DNA of 59,547 bases, the filler included, from Sphacelaria rigidula (lineage: Eukaryota): the NCBI GenBank assembly GCA_964200075.2. It is 4 parts of 4 records of this genome, joined end to end, with 100 filler letters (N's around TTAATTAATTAA, not from the genome) between each part and the next. Parts side by side here need not be neighbours in the genome. Positions count along the whole stretch, not along the records: positions 1 to 14,816 come from CAXNAA020002032.1; 3 more parts are not named here. One strand, given 5' to 3'. The notes beneath the pieces are model-generated. The model had not been told where the DNA came from. It made no database searches and saw nothing but the letters and a program-made list of their open reading frames with translations. Numbering within the stretch: the first letter of the stretch is position 1; the number at the start of each line of letters is the position of its first letter. A program made the position numbers and the translations under genes. Shown one piece after another: positions 1,175 through 50,400 of the stretch.

Positions 1175-3241
1175 TTATCTCTTTCGCAGGCGGGATGAGG
1201 CCACGGACACGTGACGAGACGGGGCGGACACGTTCAGTTCAAACTTCACGTCAGTTCTGTCGTCTTCAGATATTTCATCATCCCCGGCTGCCACGTCAAG
1301 TACCGGCAGCACCTGGGCCGTCCGGCGAAGCCGCTTCGTGTTCCTCCCATTGGTGATGCTACTGCTTCTGGTAGTCTTTGTGGAGCCGCTCATGCTGTCA
1401 CAACTGCTGGATCGCGCAGTAACTCGTTTGCTAGTTCGTATCCCCATGAAAACTCGCGTAGGCGCAACAGTCGTTTCCATTTTGATTTTCATGCGCATCT
1501 CTGACCCCCCCAGAGTCACCCTATCTGCTGCCACCGCGCCGGGGGGCTGTCTCGAAGGGGAAGGCAATTCGGTCGTGGAATTTGCACCCCGTCGCCTAAC
1601 ACGGATGACACGCGAGCTGGCACGAGACTCAGCGTCACGGCCACCATCTTCAGTGTTGGGACCGCCATTCGGCGGATCGCCAATATTTCTACCTCCATCA
1701 TCGATACCGACACCAGTCTCTCCCACGACCAAGCCATCACTCGCTGAGCTTTTTTCTCGGATATGTCCTGTGGGATCAGACCCTCTGGCCAAACCATATG
1801 GAGCATAATGGTTGATAATTGGGTCCTCCCGAACCAGGTTAAAATGATGCAGCGAGGCGCATTCATCACCGTTTATGAAGGCTATCCCTGCGCTGGCGTG
1901 TGCGGCGTGAAAATCCGCATCTTTGCCACCGACTGCACCGGGTGATCGTCGGGTGGAGCAGCCCTCTCTGCCGCATTGCCGTCGTACCACATCGACCATG
2001 CCTGGACGGGTGTGTGGGGGGCAGAACTCCGCTTTCTCGCGACCGGCTGTACCGAATGACGGTGCTGCGGAGCAGCCCTCCTTCCTACACCGCCTTCGTG
2101 CCACGTCGACCGTGCCCGCTCGGGCGTGTGCGGCGCAGAACTCAACCTTGCTGAATGTTCCTGCATCAACCGATGACTGGTTCGAGTGGCCGTCCTTGCC
2201 GCGCTGCTCGTTTCTCACGTGAGCCACACCTGCTCGAGCATGTCTAGCGCAGAACCCCGCCTTCCTGCTACCGGCTGCACTGAACGATGCTCTTGCAGAG
2301 CAGCCCTCCTCACTGCACCACTTGCGTACCACGTCGACCATGCCCGCTCGGGCGTGTGTAGCGCAGAACTTCGCCTTCCCGCTACCGGCTGCACCGAACG
2401 AGGGTTGTGTGGTGCAGCCCTCCTCGCTGCGCCGCTTGCTTACCACATCGACCATGCCCGCTCGGGTGTGTGCGGCGCAAAACTCCGCATTCCTGCTACC
2501 GGCTGTACCGAACGATGGGTATTTGGAGCAGCCCTCCTCGCCAAACCGCCTGGTTATCACATCGACCATGCCCGCACGGGCGTGTTTCGCACAGAACTCC
2601 GCTTTTTTGCTACCGGTTGCACCGAACGATGGATATGTGGAGCAGCCCTCCTCGCCGCAGCGCTTGTTCTTCACATTGACCATGCCCGCTCGGGCGTGTG
2701 CGGCGCAAAACGCCCTCTTCCTGCTGCCGGCTTCACCGAACGACGGGTGTTTGGAGCAGCCCTTCTCGCCACACCCCTTGGTCATCACATCCACCATGCC
2801 CGCTCGGGCGTGTGCGGCGCAGTACTTCGTGTTCCCGCTACCCGCTGCACCGAACGATGGTCGAGTGGAGCAGCCCTCCTCACTGAACTGCTTGTTCCTC
2901 ACATTCACCATGCCTGCTCGGGCGTGTGCGGCGCGAAACTCCGTCTTCCTGCTGCCGGCTTCACCGAATGATGGTTTTATGGAGCAGCCCTCCTCGCCGC
3001 TCGGCTTGTTCCTCACATCGACCATGCCCGCTCGGGCATGTGCGGCGCAGAAGTCCGCCTTGGTGCTACCGGCTGCACCGAACGTTGGTCTCGTGGAGCA
3101 GCCCTCCTTGCTGCACCGCTTGCTCGTCACATCGACCATGCCTGCTGGGGCGTGTGCGGCACAGAACTCCGCCTTCCTGTTACCATCTATGCCATATGAT
3201 GCCCTCATGGTGCAACTCGTGTGGGTGCACAACCTAGGCAT
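1175..3241 (-). CDS. EsV-1-7 cysteine-rich repeat protein (intronless, ~688 aa, 12 repeats plus low-complexity C-terminal tail)
   Basis: ORF 1175..3475(-) contains tandem 38-aa units MVDVxxKxCxxEGCSxxPSFGxAGSxKxxFCAAHARAG (C-x4-C-x16-C-x2-H), matching the EsV-1-7 motif of brown algae and Ectocarpus siliculosus virus (IMM family). The probable start is the ATG at 3241 (MPRLCTHTSC), directly at repeat 1. The tail has basic clusters (RVIRVRRR, RLRKR) and psi-K-x-E motifs (IKME, VKFE). Confidence 0.88.
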   Translation of the reverse strand: MPRLCTHTSCTMRASYGIDGNRKAEFCAAHAPAGMVDVTSKRCSKEGCSTRPTFGAAGSTKADFCAAHARAGMVDVRNKPSGEEGCSIKPSFGEAGSRKTEFRAAHARAGMVNVRNKQFSEEGCSTRPSFGAAGSGNTKYCAAHARAGMVDVMTKGCGEKGCSKHPSFGEAGSRKRAFCAAHARAGMVNVKNKRCGEEGCSTYPSFGATGSKKAEFCAKHARAGMVDVITRRFGEEGCSKYPSFGTAGSRNAEFCAAHTRAGMVDVVSKRRSEEGCTTQPSFGAAGSGKAKFCATHARAGMVDVVRKWCSEEGCSARASFSAAGSRKAGFCARHARAGVAHVRNEQRGKDGHSNQSSVDAGTFSKVEFCAAHARAGTVDVARRRCRKEGCSAAPSFGTAGREKAEFCPPHTRPGMVDVVRRQCGREGCSTRRSPGAVGGKDADFHAAHASAGIAFINGDECASLHHFNLVREDPIINHYAPYGLARGSDPTGHIREKSSASDGLVVGETGVGIDDGGRNIGDPPNGGPNTEDGGRDAESRASSRVIRVRRRGANSTTELPSPSRQPPGAVAADRVTLGGSEMRMKIKMETTVAPTRVFMGIRTSKRVTARSSSCDSMSGSTKTTRSSSITNGRNTKRLRRTAQVLPVLDVAAGDDEISEDDRTDVKFELNVSAPSRHVSVASSRLRKR
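1886..3241 (-). repeat. Coding tandem array of 114-bp units (EsV-1-7 repeats: one 34-aa unit plus 11 x 38 aa)
   Basis: On the + strand the motifs 'accatgcccgctcgggcgtgtgcggcgca' and 'gagcagccctcctc' recur at 114-bp period. Confidence 0.95.
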
Positions 3242-3622
3242 CCCCTTCACCACTGCACCAGAGAAGGTACAAAGCCGCGGTCGTCCCTTTCGTGCTTCTT
3301 CTGCTGCGATCCGCACTGTCACAAACCCCTTCCCGAAGACCAGCTGGCCAGTCCAGCAGCACCCTGCACCAACCAGCAAAGGTAACGTTAGGCCGTGCCC
3401 GTGCGAAAGACAGGTGAACCTCATCATTGTATGTCGGTCGCATATGGGCACGTGGGCCAGAGTGAAGTGACACATCAGCCGTGGAGTTAACAGGCGACAG
3501 AGAAAGGGCTGCTATAGTAGGGTCATCATGGTGGGGGGGGGGGGGGGGGCGCCAACAAGAAGAGCAGCAGGTGGACGGTTNNNNNNNNNNGGAGAAAGAG
3601 GGGGCGAAGGAGGGGGGGGGGT

Positions 3623-3658
<36 letters not shown>

Positions 3659-14816: not shown

Positions 14817-14916
14817 NNNNNNNNNNNNNNNNNNNNNNNNNNNNNNNNNNNNNNNNNNNNTTAATTAATTAANNNNNNNNNNNNNNNNNNNNNNNNNNNN
14901 NNNNNNNNNNNNNNNN
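14817..14916. other. Artificial contig-joining spacer (N44-TTAATTAATTAA-N44)
   Basis: Exactly 100 bp with a six-frame stop linker. Identical spacers occur at 29731 and 44640. Confidence 0.97.
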
Positions 14917-29730: not shown

Positions 29731-29830
29731 NNNNNNNNNNNNNNNNNNNNNNNNNNNNNNNNNNNNNNNNNNNNTTAATTAATTAANNNNNNNNNNNNNN
29801 NNNNNNNNNNNNNNNNNNNNNNNNNNNNNN
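29731..29830. other. Artificial contig-joining spacer
   Basis: N44-TTAATTAATTAA-N44. Confidence 0.97.
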
Positions 29831-31700: not shown

Positions 31701-34700
31701 ATGATGTCCCTACTAAGCAGGCCCGCCAAATGGCTCACCATAACCGACGCTATGGAGTACCTGGATGCAGTGAAGCTCGAATATCGGGATCAACCGGACA
31801 TCTACGACGATTTTCTCGCCATAATGGGGCGATTCAGGACGAACCAAATGCTTCCCCCCGCAGTGATTGATGAAGTCGCGACGCTTTTTCGCGGCCGAGA
31901 CCAGCTTATTCTTAGGTTTAACCGATTCCTACCGGACGCCTACAAGATCGGCCAAGAGGATATCGAACGTATGGAGGACGCGCGGATTGCAGAGGAGCAA
32001 CGAGAGCGCCGTCAAGGTCATGCGGATGCACTTTCTGTGCATTTTTTCGTTCGTTTCAAAGCTTTTGAAACGATACGCGTTGATTTCACCGAATGCTCAT
32101 ATGCTACTGACTTTGACGAGTGTACTGGTCGGTGCGGTGTTCATGTTTCTATACTATACATCTACGCTTCACGGGACTGCGGCTCTGTGTGCCGCAAATA
32201 CAGTATACGAAACAGGATTGTGCACTGTGATTAATCTCAGACGGCACGGCCTACTTGCCTGAGTACGAACATGGAGTGAGTAATCAAATGCAGAAAACTT
32301 GAGTGACAACAGCAACAATGCCCATAACTAAATTGCCTCCCCCCCCCGTGCAGTAGGTGACGCTGGGCATGTTCTCGGAGGAGACACTGGCGCGCGACGG
32401 GGGGGGCGAGGAACGACAGGGGCGCTTGACGGGCTTCCTGGGCACTTGGACGATGGCGGCAGGGGTACTCCCGACCACACCGATAGGGAAGATGAAGATG
32501 ATGTGCACGACTGTGAAGCGCCTGAGTACGAATTCGACCACGCCATCAATTACGTCACGTGCATCAAGCGTCGCTTTGCGCATGAACCGGAAACGTACAA
32601 AGCGTTCCTTGATATCCTGCATACGTACCAGCGTCAGCGCGAGCACACTGGTGATTATCTTCTGGTTCCGTATTTTCGTACAGGCAGATGGGATGAAGTG
32701 GTCGTGCCATCTTTAAGCTGTTGTGTCAATCAACTAGATGTTGCCGATCGCTCTCGAATGCGTTTGACCCCGAGTTACCCATCTTCGTTCATGAACTCTC
32801 GATTTTTGGCGCTACTATGCTCAACCAACAGGACTCAACATAATGGGCTGTATCTATCTGGCAGCTGTGCAGTAGTTGAGCGACTTTTTCACGTGGAACA
32901 ACGACTGGCCCACCTCTCATCTTCTTGCGACTTTCCCCTCACCGTGTGCCTGGCAAAGTTTTTGGAGATCCCTATTCGTCATCAGGAGAGTAATGTGTAA
33001 TATATACCTTGATCCCTTCCTTGTTCCAGGTATCAACACGGTGCTGGAGCAGGTTACGAGCCTTTTTTCGAATCAGCCGGATTTGCTGAAGGAGTTCACG
33101 TACTTTTTACCAGACACGGTCCAGGCACAAGCAAAGGAAAAACTTGACCGCGCGGCAGAGGAAGCTGAGATTAGGCTGGGAATACGTGATGCGGATGGAC
33201 GGGTGCACAACGGGAATCGAGGCCAGGCGAACAGGCCGCATGGTGGCACGAGAGGAGGGGGGATGGGGCTACCGAGGGGAACAGGTGGTGACATGTTTCG
33301 GGGAGGCCCAGAGAGAATGTCGCAACGAGACGATCTGGCCCAAGACTGGCATAACCAGTTTGGGTACATCCCATTTCGCGAAGGCAGACACCCCCGCGTT
33401 GGGCATAGGTCTCGGGCGCACTTTACTAACGGCAATCTCAGCCGTGTTGGCATGAGGCACCCGTTCCCAGGAATGAACGATAGCGCCCACGGATCGATCG
33501 ATGGCTACCGCGGCGGGCGGCGGGCGGGACGGTGGAGGGGCGAGGAAGCGGAGGACTACGAAAGTAGCATCGATGCGCCAATCGGAGTGCCCAGGAAGCG
33601 CAGCCGAACGGCAGACCAGCCCATCCCGAAGGAAGTCGGGCCCAGCGAGTCGGCGATGGACTCTCAGGACGAGTTCAAGGTCTCCCCAGAGCATCAGTTC
33701 TTCGACCAAGCTCGTAACTATTTGTGCGAGGGAGGCGATAATTCTGACTGGAGCGCATTCTTGAAGGTTCTCGAGATGTTCAGTAATGACGTGTTCAGCC
33801 GTGACGATATGATGGTCCATGCGCGGGATCTCTTCGGTGATGAAAAAGACTATGGCCTGTTGGACAAGTTCAAAGCTCTCGTGGACAGGAGAGACTCGTT
33901 GGATAAGCCCCCGGCTGAAATCACGCCGATTGTGGGGCTGTCTGACATGCACTTAGAAAATGCACCGGTCGTAACACCTAGCTATCGCGAGATCCCAAGA
34001 CAGTATCAATTGATGAGGTCCAGCGGGCGGAGCGCAGCCGAAGAAAAGTTGTTGAACGATCGCTGGGTCAGTCTTCCGGTTGGCAGCGAAGACAACAACA
34101 CCTTCAAGCACATGCGGCGTAATCCACATGAAGACGTGCTGTTCAAGGTGGAAGACGAGCGTTTCGAGTTAGATATGCTGATCGATGCTGTTACGGCAAC
34201 CATAGCTCGCCTGGAGCCTGCAGAAGAAGAAATCGAGGCGTTGAAGGCCACCGTACAGGTTTCCCTTGGGCAAACGTCGCAAAAAATTGCAGGCGCGAAT
34301 GAAGGAAAGTCCTCAGAAGCAGTCGCCCGTTCTGTGCCTCAGTTCCAGTACAGACTCGATGAGCGCACGCTGGGGGCGATACATCTAAGCACCATCTCAC
34401 GCCTTTACGGAGACCACGGACCGGAGGTGCTAGAGCTGATGCGCGAAAACCCAGCTGCGGCAGTTCCTGTGGTGCTCAAGCGCCTTCGTCAGAAACAGCG
34501 GGAGTGGCGCACGGCACGCGAGAAAGCAAAAAGTGCTTGGAAGGAGCTTGCACAGAAAAATTTCCATAAGAGTCTCGATCACCGCTCTTCGCATTTCCGC
34601 AGGGAAGACAGGCGAAGCACTACCGCTCGTTTTCTTGTAGAGGAAATTAAGTACAAGAAGGCGGAGGAGGATCCACAAGCAGCCGCCGTAGCCGCCGTGG

Positions 34701-37700
34701 TGAAGGCTGCCCGAGTCCAGGCGGATGACGCACAAGACGACCCGGCGTTGCTCATCGGGCGCATCTCTCCCCTCTCCTTTGGAGGAGAATCCGACAATCC
34801 TAGCGTTAGCCAAAACAGTGTCGGGGGTGTCGATGGGGGTGTCACGGCGGCTTTACCTAGTGATGGCAGAGCGAGCGCGAAGAGTCCGGTGGCTGTACCG
34901 CAAAGTGACGATGCCCCCTCTGCTGCTGAAGGGCGACCGCGAACTAGAGAAGGCATCAGGGCGCTGCGACGGAAAGCCGAGGAAACCGCCCCTTGGTACA
35001 TGTTCGAACACCTGTCGTTGTCCTACCCTGAGGAAGAGCTAGAGTCTATTCATCAAGATATAATGGACCTGCTGGTGCACACCTTGGCACGTCGACCTCC
35101 TTCAGAGGAAGACGCAGGGAAAGCTTCCCCTCTAGTAGTAGACTTGTTACCTACGTTCTTTCGGATGAAAACAACGAATCGCAGAGCAGTTGGCGCTGAC
35201 GTCAGCAAGGCAGGCAAGGCTAGTCCTGGGGTATCAGGGGAGCGAATCGATTCTGCCGAAAAGGTGAGCGATATCTCAAAATGTTGATGCTCCCTTCCTT
35301 GAACGTAGCGTGGCTTATCGTAGTTTGCACTTGAGCAAATGAACTGGCATGGGATGGATGACAGCCTCAACCGGAGAACAACATATTTTTGTCCCAGCCA
35401 AAGTTCAAAAGGCGCGCGTGGGTGCTCACATGTACGAACGGGTGCATGGCTGCTGGTGGTTCTCGGGAGCTGACCCGCAAGTTGGATGGTGCTTTGAAAA
35501 TACGGTTTCATCGCGAAAGTCTCGTATCATAGCGCCTGAGTTTACGTGCAGCATTTTCTCCACGTGGAATCTTGCATCTGAATTTTGGCGCAATTTGCTC
35601 GGCACGTTGATCACATTTCACGCTGCGCAAAGCACCCGTCACCCCGCTTGGCAGGAGAACTTCGCTCGTTGGATTCATTTACCCGCATCTACACTATCCC
35701 TGCTTTTCCGGACCTTGGATCAATGCGCCGCGTAATATCGCCGTCGGGAGGTTGTCGGCGGGTGAGGCTTTCTCCCCCAAAGCGTCTGGGCGCAGTACAC
35801 TTCACACATGGATCGTCTGATACCGTCCACCCGCTCTATTCCCATTTTACAGGAAATGCCTGGCATGCCAACCTTGAGCTCGGACGAAGACAGTGACAAC
35901 GACAACGACGATTCAAGCCCAAGCACACCGAGTGATGGGGTGGGAGACACGGGAGGAGGCCCACCGCAACCGGGCACGCACTCTCGGGATTCAACTGGAA
36001 GTAGTGCCGGACGGATGGTGGATGTTGTTGCGAAGGATCCAGGCGTTTCCCTCTTCGCTCTTCCAGATAACCAAGAGATATTCCTCACCACTACAGATTT
36101 CTATGTTGCCTTGAGAATGCATCACATGCTCGCGGGAAGGCTCTCGGCAGCAAGGAGGCTGTGCCGGGAAGCAGGACGGTCACGTCAACCAGTGGTGGCC
36201 TGTTCTCAGGAGGTAATAATAGTAAAAGTAATGATTATGATATGTGTTCGCACAACAAGAAAGGTGTTTGTGCCGAACCCTAGCGGTTGCCGAAGTGAAA
36301 ATCAATTGTGTATTGTATGTACAACATGACGTTGAAACATCGCGGGTTGACTTCCTCATGGCGACTCACAACGAAACGCGAACACGGCGATCGCGGACAA
36401 CGCACTGTCAGAGACTTCTAAGGTGATGGATTCTTTGCACCCCGTGCGAGCATTTTTACGGTATAAGTCGTCACGTTACTTGTTGAGTAGATCGCTTGTC
36501 GAACTCTGCTGGTCTAGTACTGTGCCTGTTGTAACCTGTCGTAGCCTCTTGTGACCTGTTAGCTCACCGTTTTGCTGTTGTGGGTTGCATTCCGCGCGTT
36601 GTGTATGTTGCGGGCAGGTCCTGCAGGCGAGTGCGGGTGTGGACTCCAGCGCCGCTATCACGGGAGCACGCAGCATACAGTCTCAAGATAATGGGCAGTC
36701 GGCGGAGGTGGGATACAAGACTTTCCTGGGGCACTTATTCGATTTGCTGGAGGAAAGGATCAGTGGTGACCGCTACGACGAGGGTGTCCGTCAACTTGTA
36801 GGAAATCAGGTGCACGATGGAATAGCGTTGGCGGATATTATGACTGGTGTTATGTTTACTGCTGCGTGTTGGCGTACGGTGCCTGAAGCATTGACACCTT
36901 CGAGAGTGCACCATGCTCGGCCTGATACATGAGGTAGTATCGACACGCTGCGTGTCGGCCGTATTGTTTCCACGATTCTAGATGCAGCTGTAGTTGTAGG
37001 TATGTACTGTTTGCATGAGTATCGGGAACTGTTCATGAGTAAAGAGCAGTCCCTGACTCCAATCCCCGTCTTTTCCAGCCGTGACGTGAAATTCAAACGC
37101 GTCATATCACAAATTAGAGCAGTCGAAGTTGTCACGCAGACGCACATCATGAACGACCACGATGTTATGCAGTCGTTCACCGAAGTTGGCAGAAAAGCCT
37201 CCTGTAGACCTGAACCGCTCACAAGGCACCTCGCTCGTGTCACAGAACGCGGTGTGGCGTTCGTGGGTCGCTGTCGTATAACCGAGCATGTACTCTGCCA
37301 ACATTTGCTGGTACACGACAGTTGTCCAAGATATACTCCGTACAACATTGGTGCGTACATGAAACTTTTGTATTGTAATTCCGGTAGCACACTTGTTAGG
37401 GTAAGCGCAGTAGGGCCCAGGACACCATAAAGCGGGAAGGGGCGTTACCGCGATGAAGACTAACTACACTATCATGGCACAATTGTGGACCTCAACGAAA
37501 GTCCACACAAGGGGAAAAATCAGTGGGGTACTCATGTCCATCATGTCCACCATGTCTATCATGTCCATCACACGCTGAGGGTATGGATAGGAGCCACAGC
37601 CCACAAACACGTTTGGACAAAAAGCAAGCACCACGTCCATCGTTACTCTTCTAGTCGTCCACCGCAGGCACAGCAGCGTATCTCCATGTCATACAGCACG

Positions 37701-40474: not shown

Positions 40475-41443
40475 CTATCGCACAACCACTTCCCCATGGA
40501 CCATCTTTGGGAACACCCTCTTATACAAATTGAGACAGACCGTGTCATGTTGCTTCACGGCCTTGTTGAATGTGACTTTCATCAGGCCGTGAGTTCCTAC
40601 TGGTTCCTTGATATGGCCCGTCAACCCGTATTTGGTTACTAGCTCTGCTGGCTTGAACCATTTCACATCTTCCGGGCCATGGAACATGTGCTTAACAATA
40701 GCTTTCCGTTTACGCACACGGATTGGGTATCCAGTGAGCACGATTTTTTTTAGCACAATACGATCTGGGTCAACTCCAAGAAGAGTCCCGGTAGCTACCA
40801 ACACAGTCCGCTTCTGTGCACCACTATCCGTTGCGGCGACTTCCTTGAACACCAGCACCGGACACGGTTGAAATGTGGTTGGCCCGTAGACGCTCGCGGC
40901 CGAGAAACAATCGGCTCGTAGAAATCGCTCGTACTTATGCTTGTCGCAGTTAAGGTTAGCTTGGCTGAAGACCGGCTTGGCTGTCCATCTCCGAAATCCA
41001 CACTGGAATACGAGTGGGTCCTTAGATGGCACGGGTTCCACAAACCGAGCGTCGCGTCGGATATTGAAGTTCAAGACACTCAGACGGTGCTCGTGCTTCA
41101 AGAGCGAGAACATGATGATGGGCGAGTCCTTCCCACCGAGGAGTGCCTTACGAGCATCCAGCAGATTGAGGGGCACCTTGTCAATCATCACCTCTACATA
41201 CAATCCAGACGCGACGTAGCTTTCATTCTCGTCCACGGTGTGCGGTTTCTCCATCATTTCTGCGTGCACAGCACCACCAGGCAAGACTTCCTCCACATCC
41301 ATCTCACTTGACGCAAGCGAGGGTCGACGGCTTGATCCACCGGTGCTACCGGCCTTACTGCCCATGAGCTGCTGATTTTGGTGACGCTCCATGGTTCGTC
41401 CAGTTGCCATGATGCTTTTTTGTACGGCAGCGAAATCTTCGAA
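40475..41443 (-). CDS. TSR1: Pre-rRNA processing / 40S biogenesis protein TSR1, terminal exon (Bms1/Tsr1 C-terminal domain); upstream exons not found in this contig
   Basis: Motifs LLKHEHRLSVLNF, SKDPLVFQCGFRR, DKHKYERF, DPDRIVLKKIVLTGYP, MFHGPEDVKWFKP, GHIKEPVGTHGLMK and DTVCLNLYKRVFPK. Acceptor tttacag|TTC at 41443. Confidence 0.93.
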   Translation of the reverse strand, partial: FEDFAAVQKSIMATGRTMERHQNQQLMGSKAGSTGGSSRRPSLASSEMDVEEVLPGGAVHAEMMEKPHTVDENESYVASGLYVEVMIDKVPLNLLDARKALLGGKDSPIIMFSLLKHEHRLSVLNFNIRRDARFVEPVPSKDPLVFQCGFRRWTAKPVFSQANLNCDKHKYERFLRADCFSAASVYGPTTFQPCPVLVFKEVAATDSGAQKRTVLVATGTLLGVDPDRIVLKKIVLTGYPIRVRKRKAIVKHMFHGPEDVKWFKPAELVTKYGLTGHIKEPVGTHGLMKVTFNKAVKQHDTVCLNLYKRVFPKMVHGEVVVR

Positions 41444-43212
41444 CTGTAAAGCAGGACACATGAAAAGATACGCGTGGCTTCAGGCATCCGTCTGACGACG
41501 CAGTTCGTGCGCAGTGCGATGATCATGTACATTGGGGGCATGCATCGCAAGTGGTCTCCACAACCAATACAAGGATATTAGACAAAGACAGCGCGGGAAC
41601 TCAAGTTTCGGTGTCCTCACGTGTATCACGGACAGCTAGCCTATTTTCCTGTACAACACTGGAAATTAAAATGTACTCATTTGTCTGTCTGTCGGATCTA
41701 TTCATCCCTCAAGCCTGACCCTTGCCAACTCTTCGACTTCTTCGGAACTTGTCACCCTTGCCGTTTGACTCCCGTGCGGCAACGATTACCGACGGTCATT
41801 ACGCGAATGCTCGGCCTGGGTCAACCACCACACCCTCCTGGCGTGGCGTGTGTATCAATTCTCACATTCTACCAAGCCCAATCATGGTGGATGTTGTTTA
41901 AAGAATGCAGATCACCATCCACCGCTCGCATACAGTACACGGAAACTTCCAACTGTAGGTATAGGTTGGTACTGTGATGAGGTTATCACGCATGACGTGC
42001 GTCTTCGAAGTCAAACTGGCAACGACTACAGAGAACTGTCACGCAAACGCTCGGCTTGGGCCAAACCACACCTTCTGGGGTGGCGTATTTGTCGACTTTT
42101 CTTTGAACAAGTCGAATATACAATGATCTAAACTAAAATCAAGTGTATGTAGAAGTGACAAAACACGCCGTATGCAGGTGTATGACCGCAAGATATGTCT
42201 ATCTTGTTTCGTCTTCATCGTGTTTCATCACGTTTTTCAGTTGTGTTTGTGAAATGATCATGTGCCTATTCAAATTAGAATCTGTCATTGTTATTTTGAT
42301 CAATACGCCTATATGCAAGAGTGATGCCACGATGGCTATCCTCCGCCCAAAACCGGGCCCAAAACTTTCACAAAGAAAATGATCATACAACACATGATGG
42401 TTTCAGACTGCATGAAGCGACTCAAATGAGCGACTGTGGCGAAAACGATCCCAAGCGTGGATGTTCCCAGCTGCTCGGTATGCTCCGCTCTTTTTGTTTT
42501 GATGTACATATAAATTTCACCACCTCAAACCAGCCACTCCTGTGCGAGGGGGGGCTACCGTGGCACCAGTTGCAAGTGTGCCGTATGATGGTGCGTCCAT
42601 CCATCATGTGCTACACTACCTAGGCTTTAGCTTCGCATGCGCGCATAAGGTTTGGCTTAATTTGGCTTTTTGGGCTTGAAATAAGCTTTTTTATTAACTG
42701 AAGCAAGCTCAAAATTTCTGACAAGCTTTTTGTGTACTTGAAACGAGCATAAAGCTGCGATAATTTTTAATGCGCCTCCTCTAACCATTGCAGAAGCGTC
42801 TGAAAGTGCCCGCTATGGCCGGTGGCATGACTCGTCACCCGTCACCAGAAAGGTTTTAATACTCTCAACTACCAGGGTTGCGGGTCTGATCCGGAACCGT
42901 TTCGCTGTAAATTTCAAAATCGTGATACTATGTTGAATGGACATATATCATCAAGATGCCGTACTTTTTTCCCTTTAAAAGCTGGTTTGGGGCGGCGTTC
43001 AAACTCAAAGATCAAAGGAAAGTTGTGTTCTTGAAATATACATATTTTTTCAAACCTCGAATACCCAAATTGTCGCCCTCTCGTGCTAGAAGGCTCGCCT
43101 CATGGGGGGATACTGCCACAACGCCACAACAAAGACGCGAAGTAGGCGCATGAAGTACGCATATTTTCACTGGAAAAAGGTTCAAAATGGGGGCTTGAAA
43201 TAAGGTGGCGAA

Positions 43213-44639: not shown

Positions 44640-44739
44640 NNNNNNNNNNNNNNNNNNNNNNNNNNNNNNNNNNNNNNNNNNNNTTAATTAATTAANNNNN
44701 NNNNNNNNNNNNNNNNNNNNNNNNNNNNNNNNNNNNNNN
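44640..44739. other. Artificial contig-joining spacer
   Basis: N44-TTAATTAATTAA-N44. Confidence 0.97.
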
Positions 44740-47456: not shown

Positions 47457-50400
47457 CTAGGTCTCCTCCACGTAGCCGCAGTCCTCGCTGGACTCGGACG
47501 GTGCTTCCACGTTATTGTCATACCCACCCAAGACGTTGCCGCTGTGATGAAAGGCGGGAAAGGGGTGGGGGTGGGGGGCATCGAGGAAGAGGCCATCGTT
47601 GAGGAATTGGAGAGAACGGAGTCCAAAATCATGGGCCGTTCACTGAAAATCAAGTTCGACTTACAAGTCAAGTAGGCTCTCCTGGAGGGTAACTTACGCA
47701 GGGTCGTAGTTGCAGACCAAGTAGTTGTACCGCCAACCGTCGCTCTCGCACGAGGCCACTGCGCAACCAACCGATTCCGTGTTATTCCAGAGGATTTGGG
47801 TAGCGTGTCCGCCGTATTCACTCGTGTCCAGGTAGCTACCGTCGGTTGCATCGAGTACTTCCTCATCATCTGTTTGTTCCGATTGTATCATGAGATGAGA
47901 AAGGGGAGAGAGTAAAGTTTTGGGAAACAAGACAAGGGCAGACCGGCCTTGGAAAACGGTACGTTCCCGTAGGTGGAAGACGGTACGTTTCCGTAAGTGG
48001 GCGTACGAGAAGTGGGGTGTAGGCGTGATACTGATCCACGGAAGACGCGGCCCCGATTCTTCCGACGCCAAGAAACAAGCGGAAAGTCCAGACTACATTA
48101 CAGTACAGCACAAGAAATTTTCCGTGACAGCTCTTTGACGTACTGACGTACTGCAAGTCTCGCGCGGCTCAGAAGCCCCCCCTCCCCTCACCCGCTCAAA
48201 TCGAAAGCGGGGCCATGAAAAACTCACAAAAACCGTACATCGCCTCGCTGGCTGAGTAGCAGTCGTAATCGCCCGTAGTGCCGCACATGTACAGGTTTTC
48301 CCCCCAGTAGTTCCTGTTTTCCGCTGTGCTGTGTTCCAGCGTTCCGTCGCATCTGTCGGAGGAGGTGAGGGTCGCTGCATACGACTGTTGTCGTTCGATG
48401 CAAGAGCGACAAAAGTTCTCAATTGAGCGAGGCCAGAAATGAACAGCGATTGGTTGGTACCGTGTTTTCGTATCCGCGAATCCCTTCCTCCGCTCAGTAG
48501 CAGGAAAATGTATGAGAAGAATGCCTTAATCAGTGTCTGCGGAGACTGAACGCGGTACTGCTGGCCAAGAAATGAATAATGCATGTATAAAAATCACCGA
48601 CTAAAATTCTAATCATACCCAGACTATGCACGGGGTGTATTTGAACATAAATGTTGCCCCCCATCCACGTTGTCAAACTATTGGTTCATTCAACACGTGG
48701 GAAAGAGCTCACCGTCTGAAACACGTCTACATTTTACTTTTCGCCAGTCACGACACGTTTTTCTGTGGGAAGTTATCCTTCCCACCCCCCAGGTCGTATG
48801 ATTGGCCTCTATTTCACGCCCTCCCGACTCAAGTGCTACTGCACAGGGCGTACTCGCTCGCGCGTTTTACTGATCGGGGTGTGTAGGGATTTGAAGAAGA
48901 ACAATGATGGACACAATGACCCACCGCTGCGGTCTCTGCAATGGTCTCGTTGTACGAGAGAGGATCGGTGCCGTGTATACACCTCACAGCATTGTGCAGA
49001 ACGAGCAAGTCTTGCATGTCACCGATGGTTGCACTCGACTGTGTGTCGTCATCGTCGACTGCAGCATCTGTCGACGGTGTCGACGGTGACATGGTCGACG
49101 TAGACATTGTCGACGGAGATATTGTCGACGGGGACATTGTCGACGGTGACATTGTCGACGGTGTCTCGTCATGGTCGACTGCAGCATCTGTCATTTGAAA
49201 CAGATTGAACTGCCACACGCCACCGCACGGCTCGAAGGGATCGCCCGTGCACTCCATGGTGCAGTTACTACCCAGGCCGTGCTTGTCGTAGTCTTCCAAG
49301 TTGCTTGAAGTCCCACACCAGCACTCTTTGCCATACTGCCGTTTAGTGGTCCGTTTGGATACAAACAAACGACGAGGAGTTTGGGGAGGGGTGAGGGAAT
49401 AAATACACTGGGGAATTAGACCCTCAGAGCAGATTGTTCACATTCTGCATTGCCTGATATAGTGCCGTTAACAGTAGAGTCACGTTCGTCATTTCGATTG
49501 TGACGTACCTTGCCACGTGAGAAGGGTACATGCATGGCGTGGAAGGGGTATATGCATGAAGTGTACGACGTCCCGCTTCAATATAATGCACGGGTGGCCA
49601 CTAGGGTGCCTGTAACCCTAAAATTGGACGTTACAGACCTCGTGCAAGGTCTGTAATGCGAGGTCTGTAATGTCCAAATTTGAGGTTGCGGGCACCCCAG
49701 TGGCCACCCGCGTGGGTATTGCAGTTAGAACATAAGTCTACCAAGTTCCATTGTGTAGTACACAATTGCAATGGCATTTTTCAATTACTTGCGGCCGCAG
49801 GATCGGCCACGCAAGAACTCTCGAACCTTGGCTGATATGACTCTCCAACCCAAGCTCTCGTTGCAAGGAGGATGACCGATCTAGTGAACTGGCTACACCA
49901 GGATCAACCTTCAAATTTCCAGGAGCGGTTATCTGCAGAAAAACCCAGAGGATGAATCGGGGAGAACGATGTATTGTAACCGCTTCCGTGTCCATTATTT
50001 TGCGGGTCGGCACACTCGGTGCCAACACCACTGCAACAAATCTCGTAGGATATCTGGCAATTCTGCTTCTGTGATCTCAGATGGGAACATGATATATTTC
50101 GTAGTCATGAAATATATTATGGCATACAGTAGCAATAAACAGCCGCCAACTCATGCTATTTATTTCAATCTTCGGTAGTGCAGGCAATCTGTCAAATCGG
50201 AATCGTTAGTTGACCCTAACCCTAACTGAAGTACAACTGATTCTGATTAACGGATCCTTCCTAGCGGCCAACGAAAGTACCTCTGATACGCAACCCACCG
50301 CCGAAAGCGACATACATGACCGCTGGCGACACATGGGGGGTGGTCCGCGTCAGAGCGTTTACACTGACCTGAGTGGCATAGTATTCGTGGCTCGGGTCCG

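Follow-up and report, generated by a model that had tools for sequence, protein, structure and literature searches.

A partly degenerate array of twelve EsV-1-7 repeats in Sphacelaria rigidula as a candidate modular nucleic-acid binder

The EsV-1-7 family is reported to be expanded in brown algae, possibly represents a new class of zinc finger and has an unknown function (10.64898/2026.04.27.720984; 10.1101/2024.02.19.579948; PMC7457493). With 2018 proteins in 31 genomes, it is listed among the largest brown-algal expansions and includes the developmental regulator IMM (10.1101/2024.02.19.579948), which is itself described as a protein of unknown function (PMC7457493). The family is further reported to have a viral affinity and, in Ectocarpus, to consist of members without any other Pfam domain (10.64898/2026.04.27.720984). 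The accessible literature on EsV-1-7, IMM and PF19114, a body of text that leaves out Macaisne et al. 2017 and the bioRxiv supplements, states no ligand, no code, no hypervariable positions and no nuclease fusion. Here, we describe P0001, an open reading frame (ORF) of the brown alga Sphacelaria rigidula (assembly GCA_964200075.2) that encodes a long EsV-1-7 array, and we weigh the possibility that this array is a modular binder of nucleic acid. The window, that is, the whole stretch of DNA that was analysed, comprises 59,547 nucleotides.

A twelve-repeat member of the EsV-1-7 family

P0001 contains twelve tandem EsV-1-7 repeats of 38 amino acids (aa 78-533) without insertions or deletions between the units. 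Tandem Repeats Finder reported a period of 114 nt at 1895-3184 (11.3 copies, 73% matches, score 1152), and a hidden Markov model (HMM) built from the repeats recovered twelve minus-strand units at 1880-3244, with no match outside the array at E < 0.3 in the 59.5-kb window. An earlier note on this DNA, made from the sequence alone, had assigned the array to the EsV-1-7 family and listed the conserved blocks EGCS, PSFG, AGS and FCAAHARAG in a 38-aa scaffold. The blocks are present as listed, and the assignment was borne out by Pfam PF19114 (EsV_1_7_cys), which matched P0001 with an E value of 9.2e-146 and a score of 473.8 bits (cut-off 25), was the sole family found and, when searched against the array alone, marked twelve stretches. 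Judged by its sequence, P0001 is a new, partly degenerate member of this known family. Its repeat count is the highest of the 119 proteins compared; the repeats share 54-86% nucleotide identity with one another, and the array has an isoelectric point (pI) of 9.6.

We numbered the columns of the repeat from the V after MVD (column 1), which places the presumed zinc ligands of the family pattern C-x4-C-x16-C-x2-H at Cys6, Cys11, Cys28 and His31. This ligand pattern suggests that the array binds zinc. All four ligands are kept in only six of the twelve P0001 repeats: His31 is present in all 12, Cys11 in 11, Cys28 in 10 and Cys6 in 7, the remaining five having S, F, F, R and R at that column. Across the family, columns 6, 11, 28 and 31 retain the ligand in 381, 380, 381 and 366 of 384 repeats, respectively. 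The twelve P0001 repeats have accumulated eight ligand substitutions, compared with 34 among the 670 repeats found in 118 other proteins; column 6 accounts for eight of those 34, and the other proteins with at least three substitutions are mostly the nearest Sphacelaria relatives. The P0001 array is a partly degenerate copy.

AlphaFold2 modelled aa 70-545 with a mean predicted local distance difference test score (pLDDT) of 79.5 and a predicted template modelling score (pTM) of 0.49. Confidence was high over most of repeats 1-9 and 11, pLDDT dropped below 50 in repeat 12 and in the N-terminal portion of repeat 10, and a model of two repeats reached 86.9. The predicted units are beta-rich with a three-residue helical turn at C-x-x-H, and the only helix of at least four residues in the 476 modelled residues lies at 341-346. 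A search of the ESM Atlas gave no usable match. A sequence profile of the repeat searched against the PDB returned only plastocyanin (E 0.085), with the F-C-A-A-H-A-R-A-G-M-V block (columns 28-37, e.g. 2561-2593) aligned to the copper-ligand loop C-x2-H-x4-M; Met36 is conserved in 367 of 384 family repeats, and the likeness is probably due to chance or packing.

Variable columns and selection within the repeats

The earlier note had singled out the residue pairs that follow EGC(S/T) in repeats 2-12 (TR, IK, TR, KH, TY, KY, TQ, AR, NQ, AA, TR) and MV(D/N)V in repeats 2-9 (TS, RN, RN, MT, KN, IT, VS, VR), and both series were identical on re-reading. Its description of the variable residues as mostly R, K, H, Y, Q, N or T also fits, applying to 19 of the 24 residues at columns 13-14. 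An entropy of at least 1.96 bits was reached at seven of the 38 P0001 columns (2, 3, 5, 13, 14, 23 and 26). When 384 repeats of other proteins were pooled, columns 13 and 14 had 2.70 and 3.28 bits and columns 7, 8, 12, 19, 30 and 33 at least 3.3 bits, so that columns 13 and 14 are unexceptional family-wide.

The picture differs within arrays. Over 34 other arrays, the mean mismatch between repeats peaked at column 14 (0.82), two positions past EGCS, followed by columns 3 (0.73) and 2 (0.67) and then by 16, 30 and 12. Column 14, where R, Q, H, K and Y are frequent, was tied for the top in 18 of the 34 arrays and among the top three in 23, whereas column 13, mostly K or T, ranked ninth in variability. 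With a broader HMM, the top columns were 16, 2, 14, 3, 30 and 12 in 54 arrays that carry a nuclease-like domain (see below) and 14, 3 and 2 in 31 arrays that do not. The earlier note had called for per-column entropies of repeats collected genome-wide; in the comparison made here, column 14 indeed recurs at the top within arrays, but its neighbour does not, and many other columns vary. Variability falls off gradually over many columns with no gap of the kind seen in transcription activator-like effectors (TALE), and the pairs at columns 13-14 are not conserved but differ between P0001 and its closest relative.

The composition of the variable columns is skewed: D and E make up no more than 2% at columns 2, 3, 5, 13, 14 and 16 of the family, compared with 18-45% at columns 7-9, 20, 22, 26, 30, 33 and 34. 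The alternation of columns 12, 14 and 16 would fit one face of a strand. Covariation among 389 distinct repeats (mutual information with average product correction, MI-APC) placed the pair of columns 5 and 14 at rank 18 with a z of 2.0, which is too weak for hairpin pairing. The repeat period across the family is 38 aa in 298 of 563 intervals, 37 aa in 105 and 39 aa in 45, with a range of 35-40.

For the twelve P0001 repeats, parsimony counted 69.3 synonymous and 140.7 non-synonymous changes, corresponding to a ratio of non-synonymous to synonymous rates (dN/dS, omega) of 0.63. The Nei-Gojobori method gave an omega of 0.58 with a repeat dS of about 0.55, and a codon-likelihood model written for this analysis gave 0.69 under M0. 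Over the 31 columns outside the seven most variable ones, dN/dS was 0.36-0.48, and site tests found a synonymous excess at His31 (P 0.0003), Phe27 (P 0.005), Gly35 (P 0.02) and Val37 (P 0.02). The scaffold of P0001 is under purifying selection. At the variable columns, the parsimony omega was 1.1-1.7, with only column 14 at P 0.045, uncorrected, and with values of 1.1-1.35 (P 0.2-0.37) at columns 2, 3, 5, 13 and 23.

Column 14 also stood out in the likelihood analysis. The comparison of M2a with M1a over all 12 repeats gave a likelihood-ratio statistic (LRT) of 17.4 (P 1.7e-4), and column 14 was the only one placed in the class with an omega of 11.6; the LRT was 17.8 with nine repeats and 10.6 with seven, degenerate repeats having been dropped. 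A site test with a shared dS estimated an omega of 12 at column 14 (P < 5e-5 on seven of seven trees). In neutral simulations at the 1x rate, none of 2000 sites exceeded an LRT of 16, the observed value for column 14 being 25.6; when the local rate was raised 2x and 3x, 1% and 8% of sites exceeded 16, respectively. The variability of column 14 is general, and its excess over neutrality was found only in the P0001 array.

Fusion partners and competing explanations

A domain of approximately 190 aa lies C-terminal to the array in 65 of 120 relatives. The RPD, IEIDEHQH and NPD blocks of this domain are invariant across 13 giant-virus loci, and the domain aligned to the cleavage domain of PvuRts1I on the EIDE-x-H block with an E value of 0.1. 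Further matches, none of which reached threshold, were to DUF2726 (in 3 of 13 members, with a best E of 1.4e-4), DUF559, Hjc, MTES_1575 and DUF1064, which are restriction-endonuclease-like families, and a search of PHROGs and NCBIfam produced one 'homing endonuclease' match (E 0.0097, 1 of 13 members). These weak matches suggest that the domain may be a PD-(D/E)XK or Vsr-like endonuclease. A structural search of BFVD returned 23 viral proteins at E <= 0.001, among them EsV-1-7 itself (6.6e-8), four entries with the name Endonuclease and one with the name DNA primase. Domains of the zf-MIZ, Tudor or Agenet type occur in single members of the family but not in P0001. An Ectocarpus Tc1/mariner transposase is reported to have an N-terminal EsV-1-7 domain (PMC12477816).

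A viral example is an ORF of 669 aa on a giant-virus contig (L006:3013-5022, plus strand), in which 11 repeats with 73-99% nucleotide identity and a degenerate twelfth precede the nuclease-like domain. Column 14 of this array has five residues (Q, K, N, I and H), the most of any column. Its repeats are more constrained than those of P0001 (omega 0.17 vs 0.69) and keep their ligands. A search for viral loci with P0009 as the query led to 21 loci, the P0001 array led to one spurious locus (L001), and the alignment A2 led to no confirmed locus. Separately, the Pfam model Zf_WRKY19 (PF24906) matched 5 of 76 family members (P0010, P0025, P0087 and others; best E 5.3e-9), which shows an overlap between this plant zinc-finger model and the EsV-1-7 motif.

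Modular nucleic-acid binding by the EsV-1-7 array is plausible, and binding to DNA in particular is plausible because relatives occur in nuclease-like, transposase and primase contexts. The variable positions recur, their make-up is basic and free of acidic residues and fusion to a nuclease-like domain is frequent, and we therefore propose DNA recognition through defined residues. Each module would hold one zinc via Cys6, Cys11, Cys28 and His31, and the array would bind a polyanion, most likely DNA, through a basic, acid-free surface that flanks the first zinc knuckle, with columns 2, 3 and 5 preceding the knuckle and columns 12, 14 and 16 following it. Specificity would reside mainly in column 14. 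In the P0001 copy, two modules are predicted not to fold and no more than six have all ligands in place. That zinc is bound, that the ligand is DNA, that the variable residues share one face and that there is some sequence specificity are inferences, whereas the family membership, the repeat anatomy, the identity of the variable positions, the ligand losses and the fusions in relatives are observed. As a whole, a polyanion-binding array that resembles zinc-finger arrays is a tentative explanation, to which we give somewhat less than an even chance. The nucleic-acid binder foreseen in the earlier note has gained context from the fusions, but its code is unproven.

Several results weigh against this proposal. 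With the first Cys missing from five of the twelve repeats and column 6 evolving at a near-neutral rate (omega 0.76), the array may be losing function. The selection signal depends on the rate model: when column 14 was given its own synonymous rate, P was 0.06 with 12 repeats, 0.027 with nine and 0.2 with seven, and a rate common to columns 12-16 weakened the signal to P 0.004. Repeat arrays recombine, which inflates selection tests of this kind. The signal was not replicated in the viral array L006, where column 14 had an omega of 1.4 (LRT 0.11) and M2a was not favoured over M1a (P 0.32), and because synonymous sites were saturated in the arrays L002, L003 and L009 (tree lengths 16-129), the column-14 test was uninformative there. 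The dN/dS comparison suggested in the earlier note thus yielded a column above neutrality in P0001, but one that is marginal under its own rate and negative in L006. Foldseek searches of the 476-aa and 76-aa models against solved folds found nothing at E <= 0.001 (best E 0.8), and the VIA wide search gave best Z scores of 3.1 and 2.1 with no convincing solved fold. The nuclease identity of the C-terminal domain comes from sub-threshold matches only, and P0001 is not among the 65 carriers of the RPD...IEIDEHQH...NPD domain. The body of literature delimited above, insofar as it is accessible, reports no binding experiment for any member of the EsV-1-7 family.

The variation could also be functionless, in which case P0001 would be a paralogue of recent origin, duplicating in tandem under relaxed constraint, whose least constrained surface columns drift near-neutrally. 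A whole-repeat dN/dS of 0.56-0.69, the non-significant omegas at columns 2, 3, 5, 13 and 23, the excess of ligand substitutions, the two repeats modelled as disordered and a public gene model that spans only aa 524-666 are all consistent with drift, as is L006, where the same variable positions had omegas of 1.4-2 that were not significantly above 1. Yet the 766-codon frame has stayed intact despite a repeat dS of about 0.55, selection on His31, Phe27, Gly35 and Val37 is strongly purifying, the C-terminal tail has been kept (see below), and three kinds of test placed column 14 above neutrality. Nor does drift alone predict the family-wide exclusion of D and E from the variable columns. We regard drift as a serious but rather unlikely account.

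Two further explanations were weighed. If the array were a protein-binding scaffold like the RING, B-box and LIM zinc modules, its variable face would pick protein partners; the only structural likenesses found by VIA are of this type (MEX-3C RING with Z 3.1, root-mean-square deviation 2.8 over 48 residues; TRIM28 B-box with Z 2.5; IDOL RING with Z 2.1), and the single members with zf-MIZ, Tudor or Agenet domains point in the same direction. According to the tool's own note, however, these Z scores lie below the level reached by unrelated models, the commonest fusion partner is the nuclease-like domain and the variable face is basic and devoid of acidic residues, all of which makes a protein scaffold improbable. 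A strict TALE-like code, with one base read per repeat through the two residues after EGC(S/T), is a narrow form of the idea in the earlier note, which had each repeat read one or a few nucleotides through a code like that of TALE, PPR or zinc-finger arrays. Such a code is consistent with the variability and the R, Q, H, K and Y content of column 14 and with the near-identical repeats of L006, which differ at few positions, but it fares badly otherwise: column 13 consists mainly of K and T and comes ninth in variability, at least seven columns vary in P0001 in a graded manner, the pairs are not conserved between P0001 and its closest relative, the period ranges over 35-40 aa across the family, the units are predicted to be beta-rich zinc modules, and Pfam returned none of the TAL effector, PPR or Pumilio repeat families. 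We consider such a code highly improbable.

Extended to the family, DNA recognition by column 14 and its neighbours would add EsV-1-7 arrays to the natural classes of modular DNA-recognition arrays that can be re-targeted. Viral arrays would aim a Vsr-like nuclease, with specificity set per repeat by columns 12, 14 and 16 together with 2, 3 and 5; brown algae would have kept nuclease-free arrays as regulators, and column 14 of P0001 would be diversifying for new targets. This broad scenario is speculative and, taken in full, unlikely. If it were true, the giant-virus arrays with their nuclease would parallel, in nature, the engineered zinc-finger and TALE nucleases. Apart from this scenario, the results give a large brown-algal family that includes IMM a concrete hypothesis, namely DNA recognition through defined residues, for which intact viral arrays such as L006 are better test objects than the partly decayed P0001 copy.

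The locus and its comparison with known systems

The features of the P0001 gene are compiled in Table 1. Because the first residues of the relatives P0003 and P0007 already belong to a repeat and the first 78 codons have no relative (the N-terminal 78 aa of P0001 matched only themselves among 121 compared proteins), Met79 is likely to be the true start. A public protein at the locus, P0122, is a partial model of 143 aa that corresponds to aa 524-666 (window 1475-1903); it is limited to the final stretch of repeat 12 and a portion of the tail, and the array lies outside it. The tail shares 42-51% identity with five S. rigidula paralogues and 76% with P0123. An exhaustive search with the tail yielded 24 representatives, of which 7 of 10 checked were from S. 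rigidula, as are all named close relatives of P0001, and a word-indexed search with the tail found nothing. On the sequence evidence, the tail-bearing relatives are a multigene subfamily of S. rigidula. The SUMO consensus is psi-K-x-E. The clusters resembling nuclear localisation signals and the two SUMO-consensus sites mentioned in the earlier note are present as motifs, but a reading of them as functional signals has only these short matches behind it.

Table 1. Positions of the P0001 features in the window
Feature	Position	Strand	Remarks
Open reading frame P0001	1175..3475	-	766 codons + stop
Likely true start ATG, Met79	3239..3241	-	relatives P0003, P0007 begin directly at a repeat, from which this start is inferred
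Array of 12 EsV-1-7 repeats, 38 aa each	1877..3244	-	Tandem Repeats Finder, Pfam, HMM
Repeat 1	3131..3244	-	four ligands present; diverged, 54-68% nt identity to other repeats
Repeat 2	3017..3130	-	ligands intact; columns 13-14 TR
Repeat 3	2903..3016	-	first Cys to Ser, third Cys to Arg; columns 13-14 IK
Repeat 4	2789..2902	-	first Cys to Phe; columns 13-14 TR
Repeat 5	2675..2788	-	ligands intact; columns 13-14 KH
Repeat 6	2561..2674	-	ligands intact; columns 13-14 TY
Repeat 7	2447..2560	-	first Cys to Phe; columns 13-14 KY
Repeat 8	2333..2446	-	first Cys to Arg; columns 13-14 TQ
Repeat 9	2219..2332	-	ligands intact; columns 13-14 AR
Repeat 10	2105..2218	-	first Cys to Arg, second Cys to His; N-terminal part pLDDT 38-42
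Repeat 11	1991..2104	-	ligands intact; columns 13-14 AA
Repeat 12	1877..1990	-	third Cys to His; pLDDT 34-45
Basic C-terminal tail, 233 aa (aa 534-766)	1178..1876	-	pI 10.3, computed on aa 540-766
Basic cluster RVRRRG	1586..1603	-	motif match
IKME	1475..1486	-	fits psi-K-x-E; kept in P0123, TKIE in P0003
Basic cluster KRLRR	1322-1336	-	motif match
VKFE	1238..1249	-	fits psi-K-x-E; VKLE in P0123, VKRE in P0003
Basic cluster RLRKR	1178-1192	-	motif match

The window consists of four pieces of approximately 14.8 kb separated by runs of N at 14817-14916, 29731-29830 and 44640-44739, and genes on different pieces therefore need not adjoin in the genome. The P0001 gene lies on the first piece (14.8 kb), which is gene-poor because the 16 further frames on it (3 + 13) gave no Pfam match; no viral hallmark gene was found there. 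Just upstream of the P0001 ORF are a gap of 10 N (3581-3590) and a run of 47 G (3612-3658). Two long antisense frames without stops, at 2223-3470 (+, 415 codons) and 2177-2971 (+, 264 codons), are interpreted as by-products of the repeat composition and not as genes. Over the repeats (1877-3244), the summed contig depth in four runs exceeded the flanking depth by factors of tens to hundreds, which suggests many near-identical copies elsewhere in the same genome; along P0001, the contigs of these four runs gave a fragmentary cover, inflated by paralogous repeats, with no usable joints. The other pieces contain a Sin3 frame with PAH and co-repressor domains (32876-35287, +), a frame with the C-terminal domain of Tsr1/BMS1 (40475-41479, -) and a frame with a weaker WSC match (48829-49437, -; 24.8 bits, under the cut-off of 27.8). 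These are ordinary host genes that, being on other pieces, say nothing on linkage to P0001.

Among described systems, P0001 is closest to the EsV-1-7 family itself (PF19114/IPR043822; EsV-1 gene 7; IMM), with which it has in common the motif, its C-x4-C-x16-C-x2-H spacing, a tandem arrangement of units of about 38 aa and the lack of any other Pfam domain. It differs in having twelve repeats, half of them with a lost ligand, and a tail confined to S. rigidula-type proteins, and it appears to be without the N-terminal domain of IMM. The giant-virus proteins that join an array to a nuclease-like domain (L006 and the BFVD entries named Endonuclease) have the same repeat, period and variable columns as P0001; unlike P0001, they have the RPD...IEIDEHQH...NPD domain and keep their ligands. 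The first zinc site of the SBP domain (PF03110), whose ligand spacing we take to be the same as that of the EsV-1-7 repeat, matches with Cys6 at profile position 1 and up to position 37. SBP was rejected as a candidate, with 16.9 bits against a cut-off of 27, 3 of 76 members at E <= 0.05 and no second zinc site.

TAL effector repeats resemble the P0001 array in their fixed length within an array and in having a hypervariable position. They are helical units of 33-35 aa with variation confined to positions 12-13, whereas the P0001 units are 38-aa strand units with a putative zinc and seven columns at or above 1.96 bits, and their nucleotide identity to one another is no more than 54-86%. A helical array of the PPR or Pumilio type was rejected on similar grounds, the search of P0001 against Pfam at E 0.01 having found no TAL effector, PPR or Pumilio match and the model having a single helix of at least four residues. 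C2H2 zinc-finger arrays such as those of the KRAB-ZNF proteins are likewise built of small tandem zinc modules without long linkers, grow by tandem duplication and vary at few surface positions per module. They differ from P0001 in their Cys2-His2 beta-beta-alpha fold, the P0001 modules having Cys3-His ligands at another spacing, a beta-rich prediction and no zf-C2H2 match in Pfam. Of these comparisons, a zinc-finger array appears to be a closer analogy to the P0001 array than a TALE.

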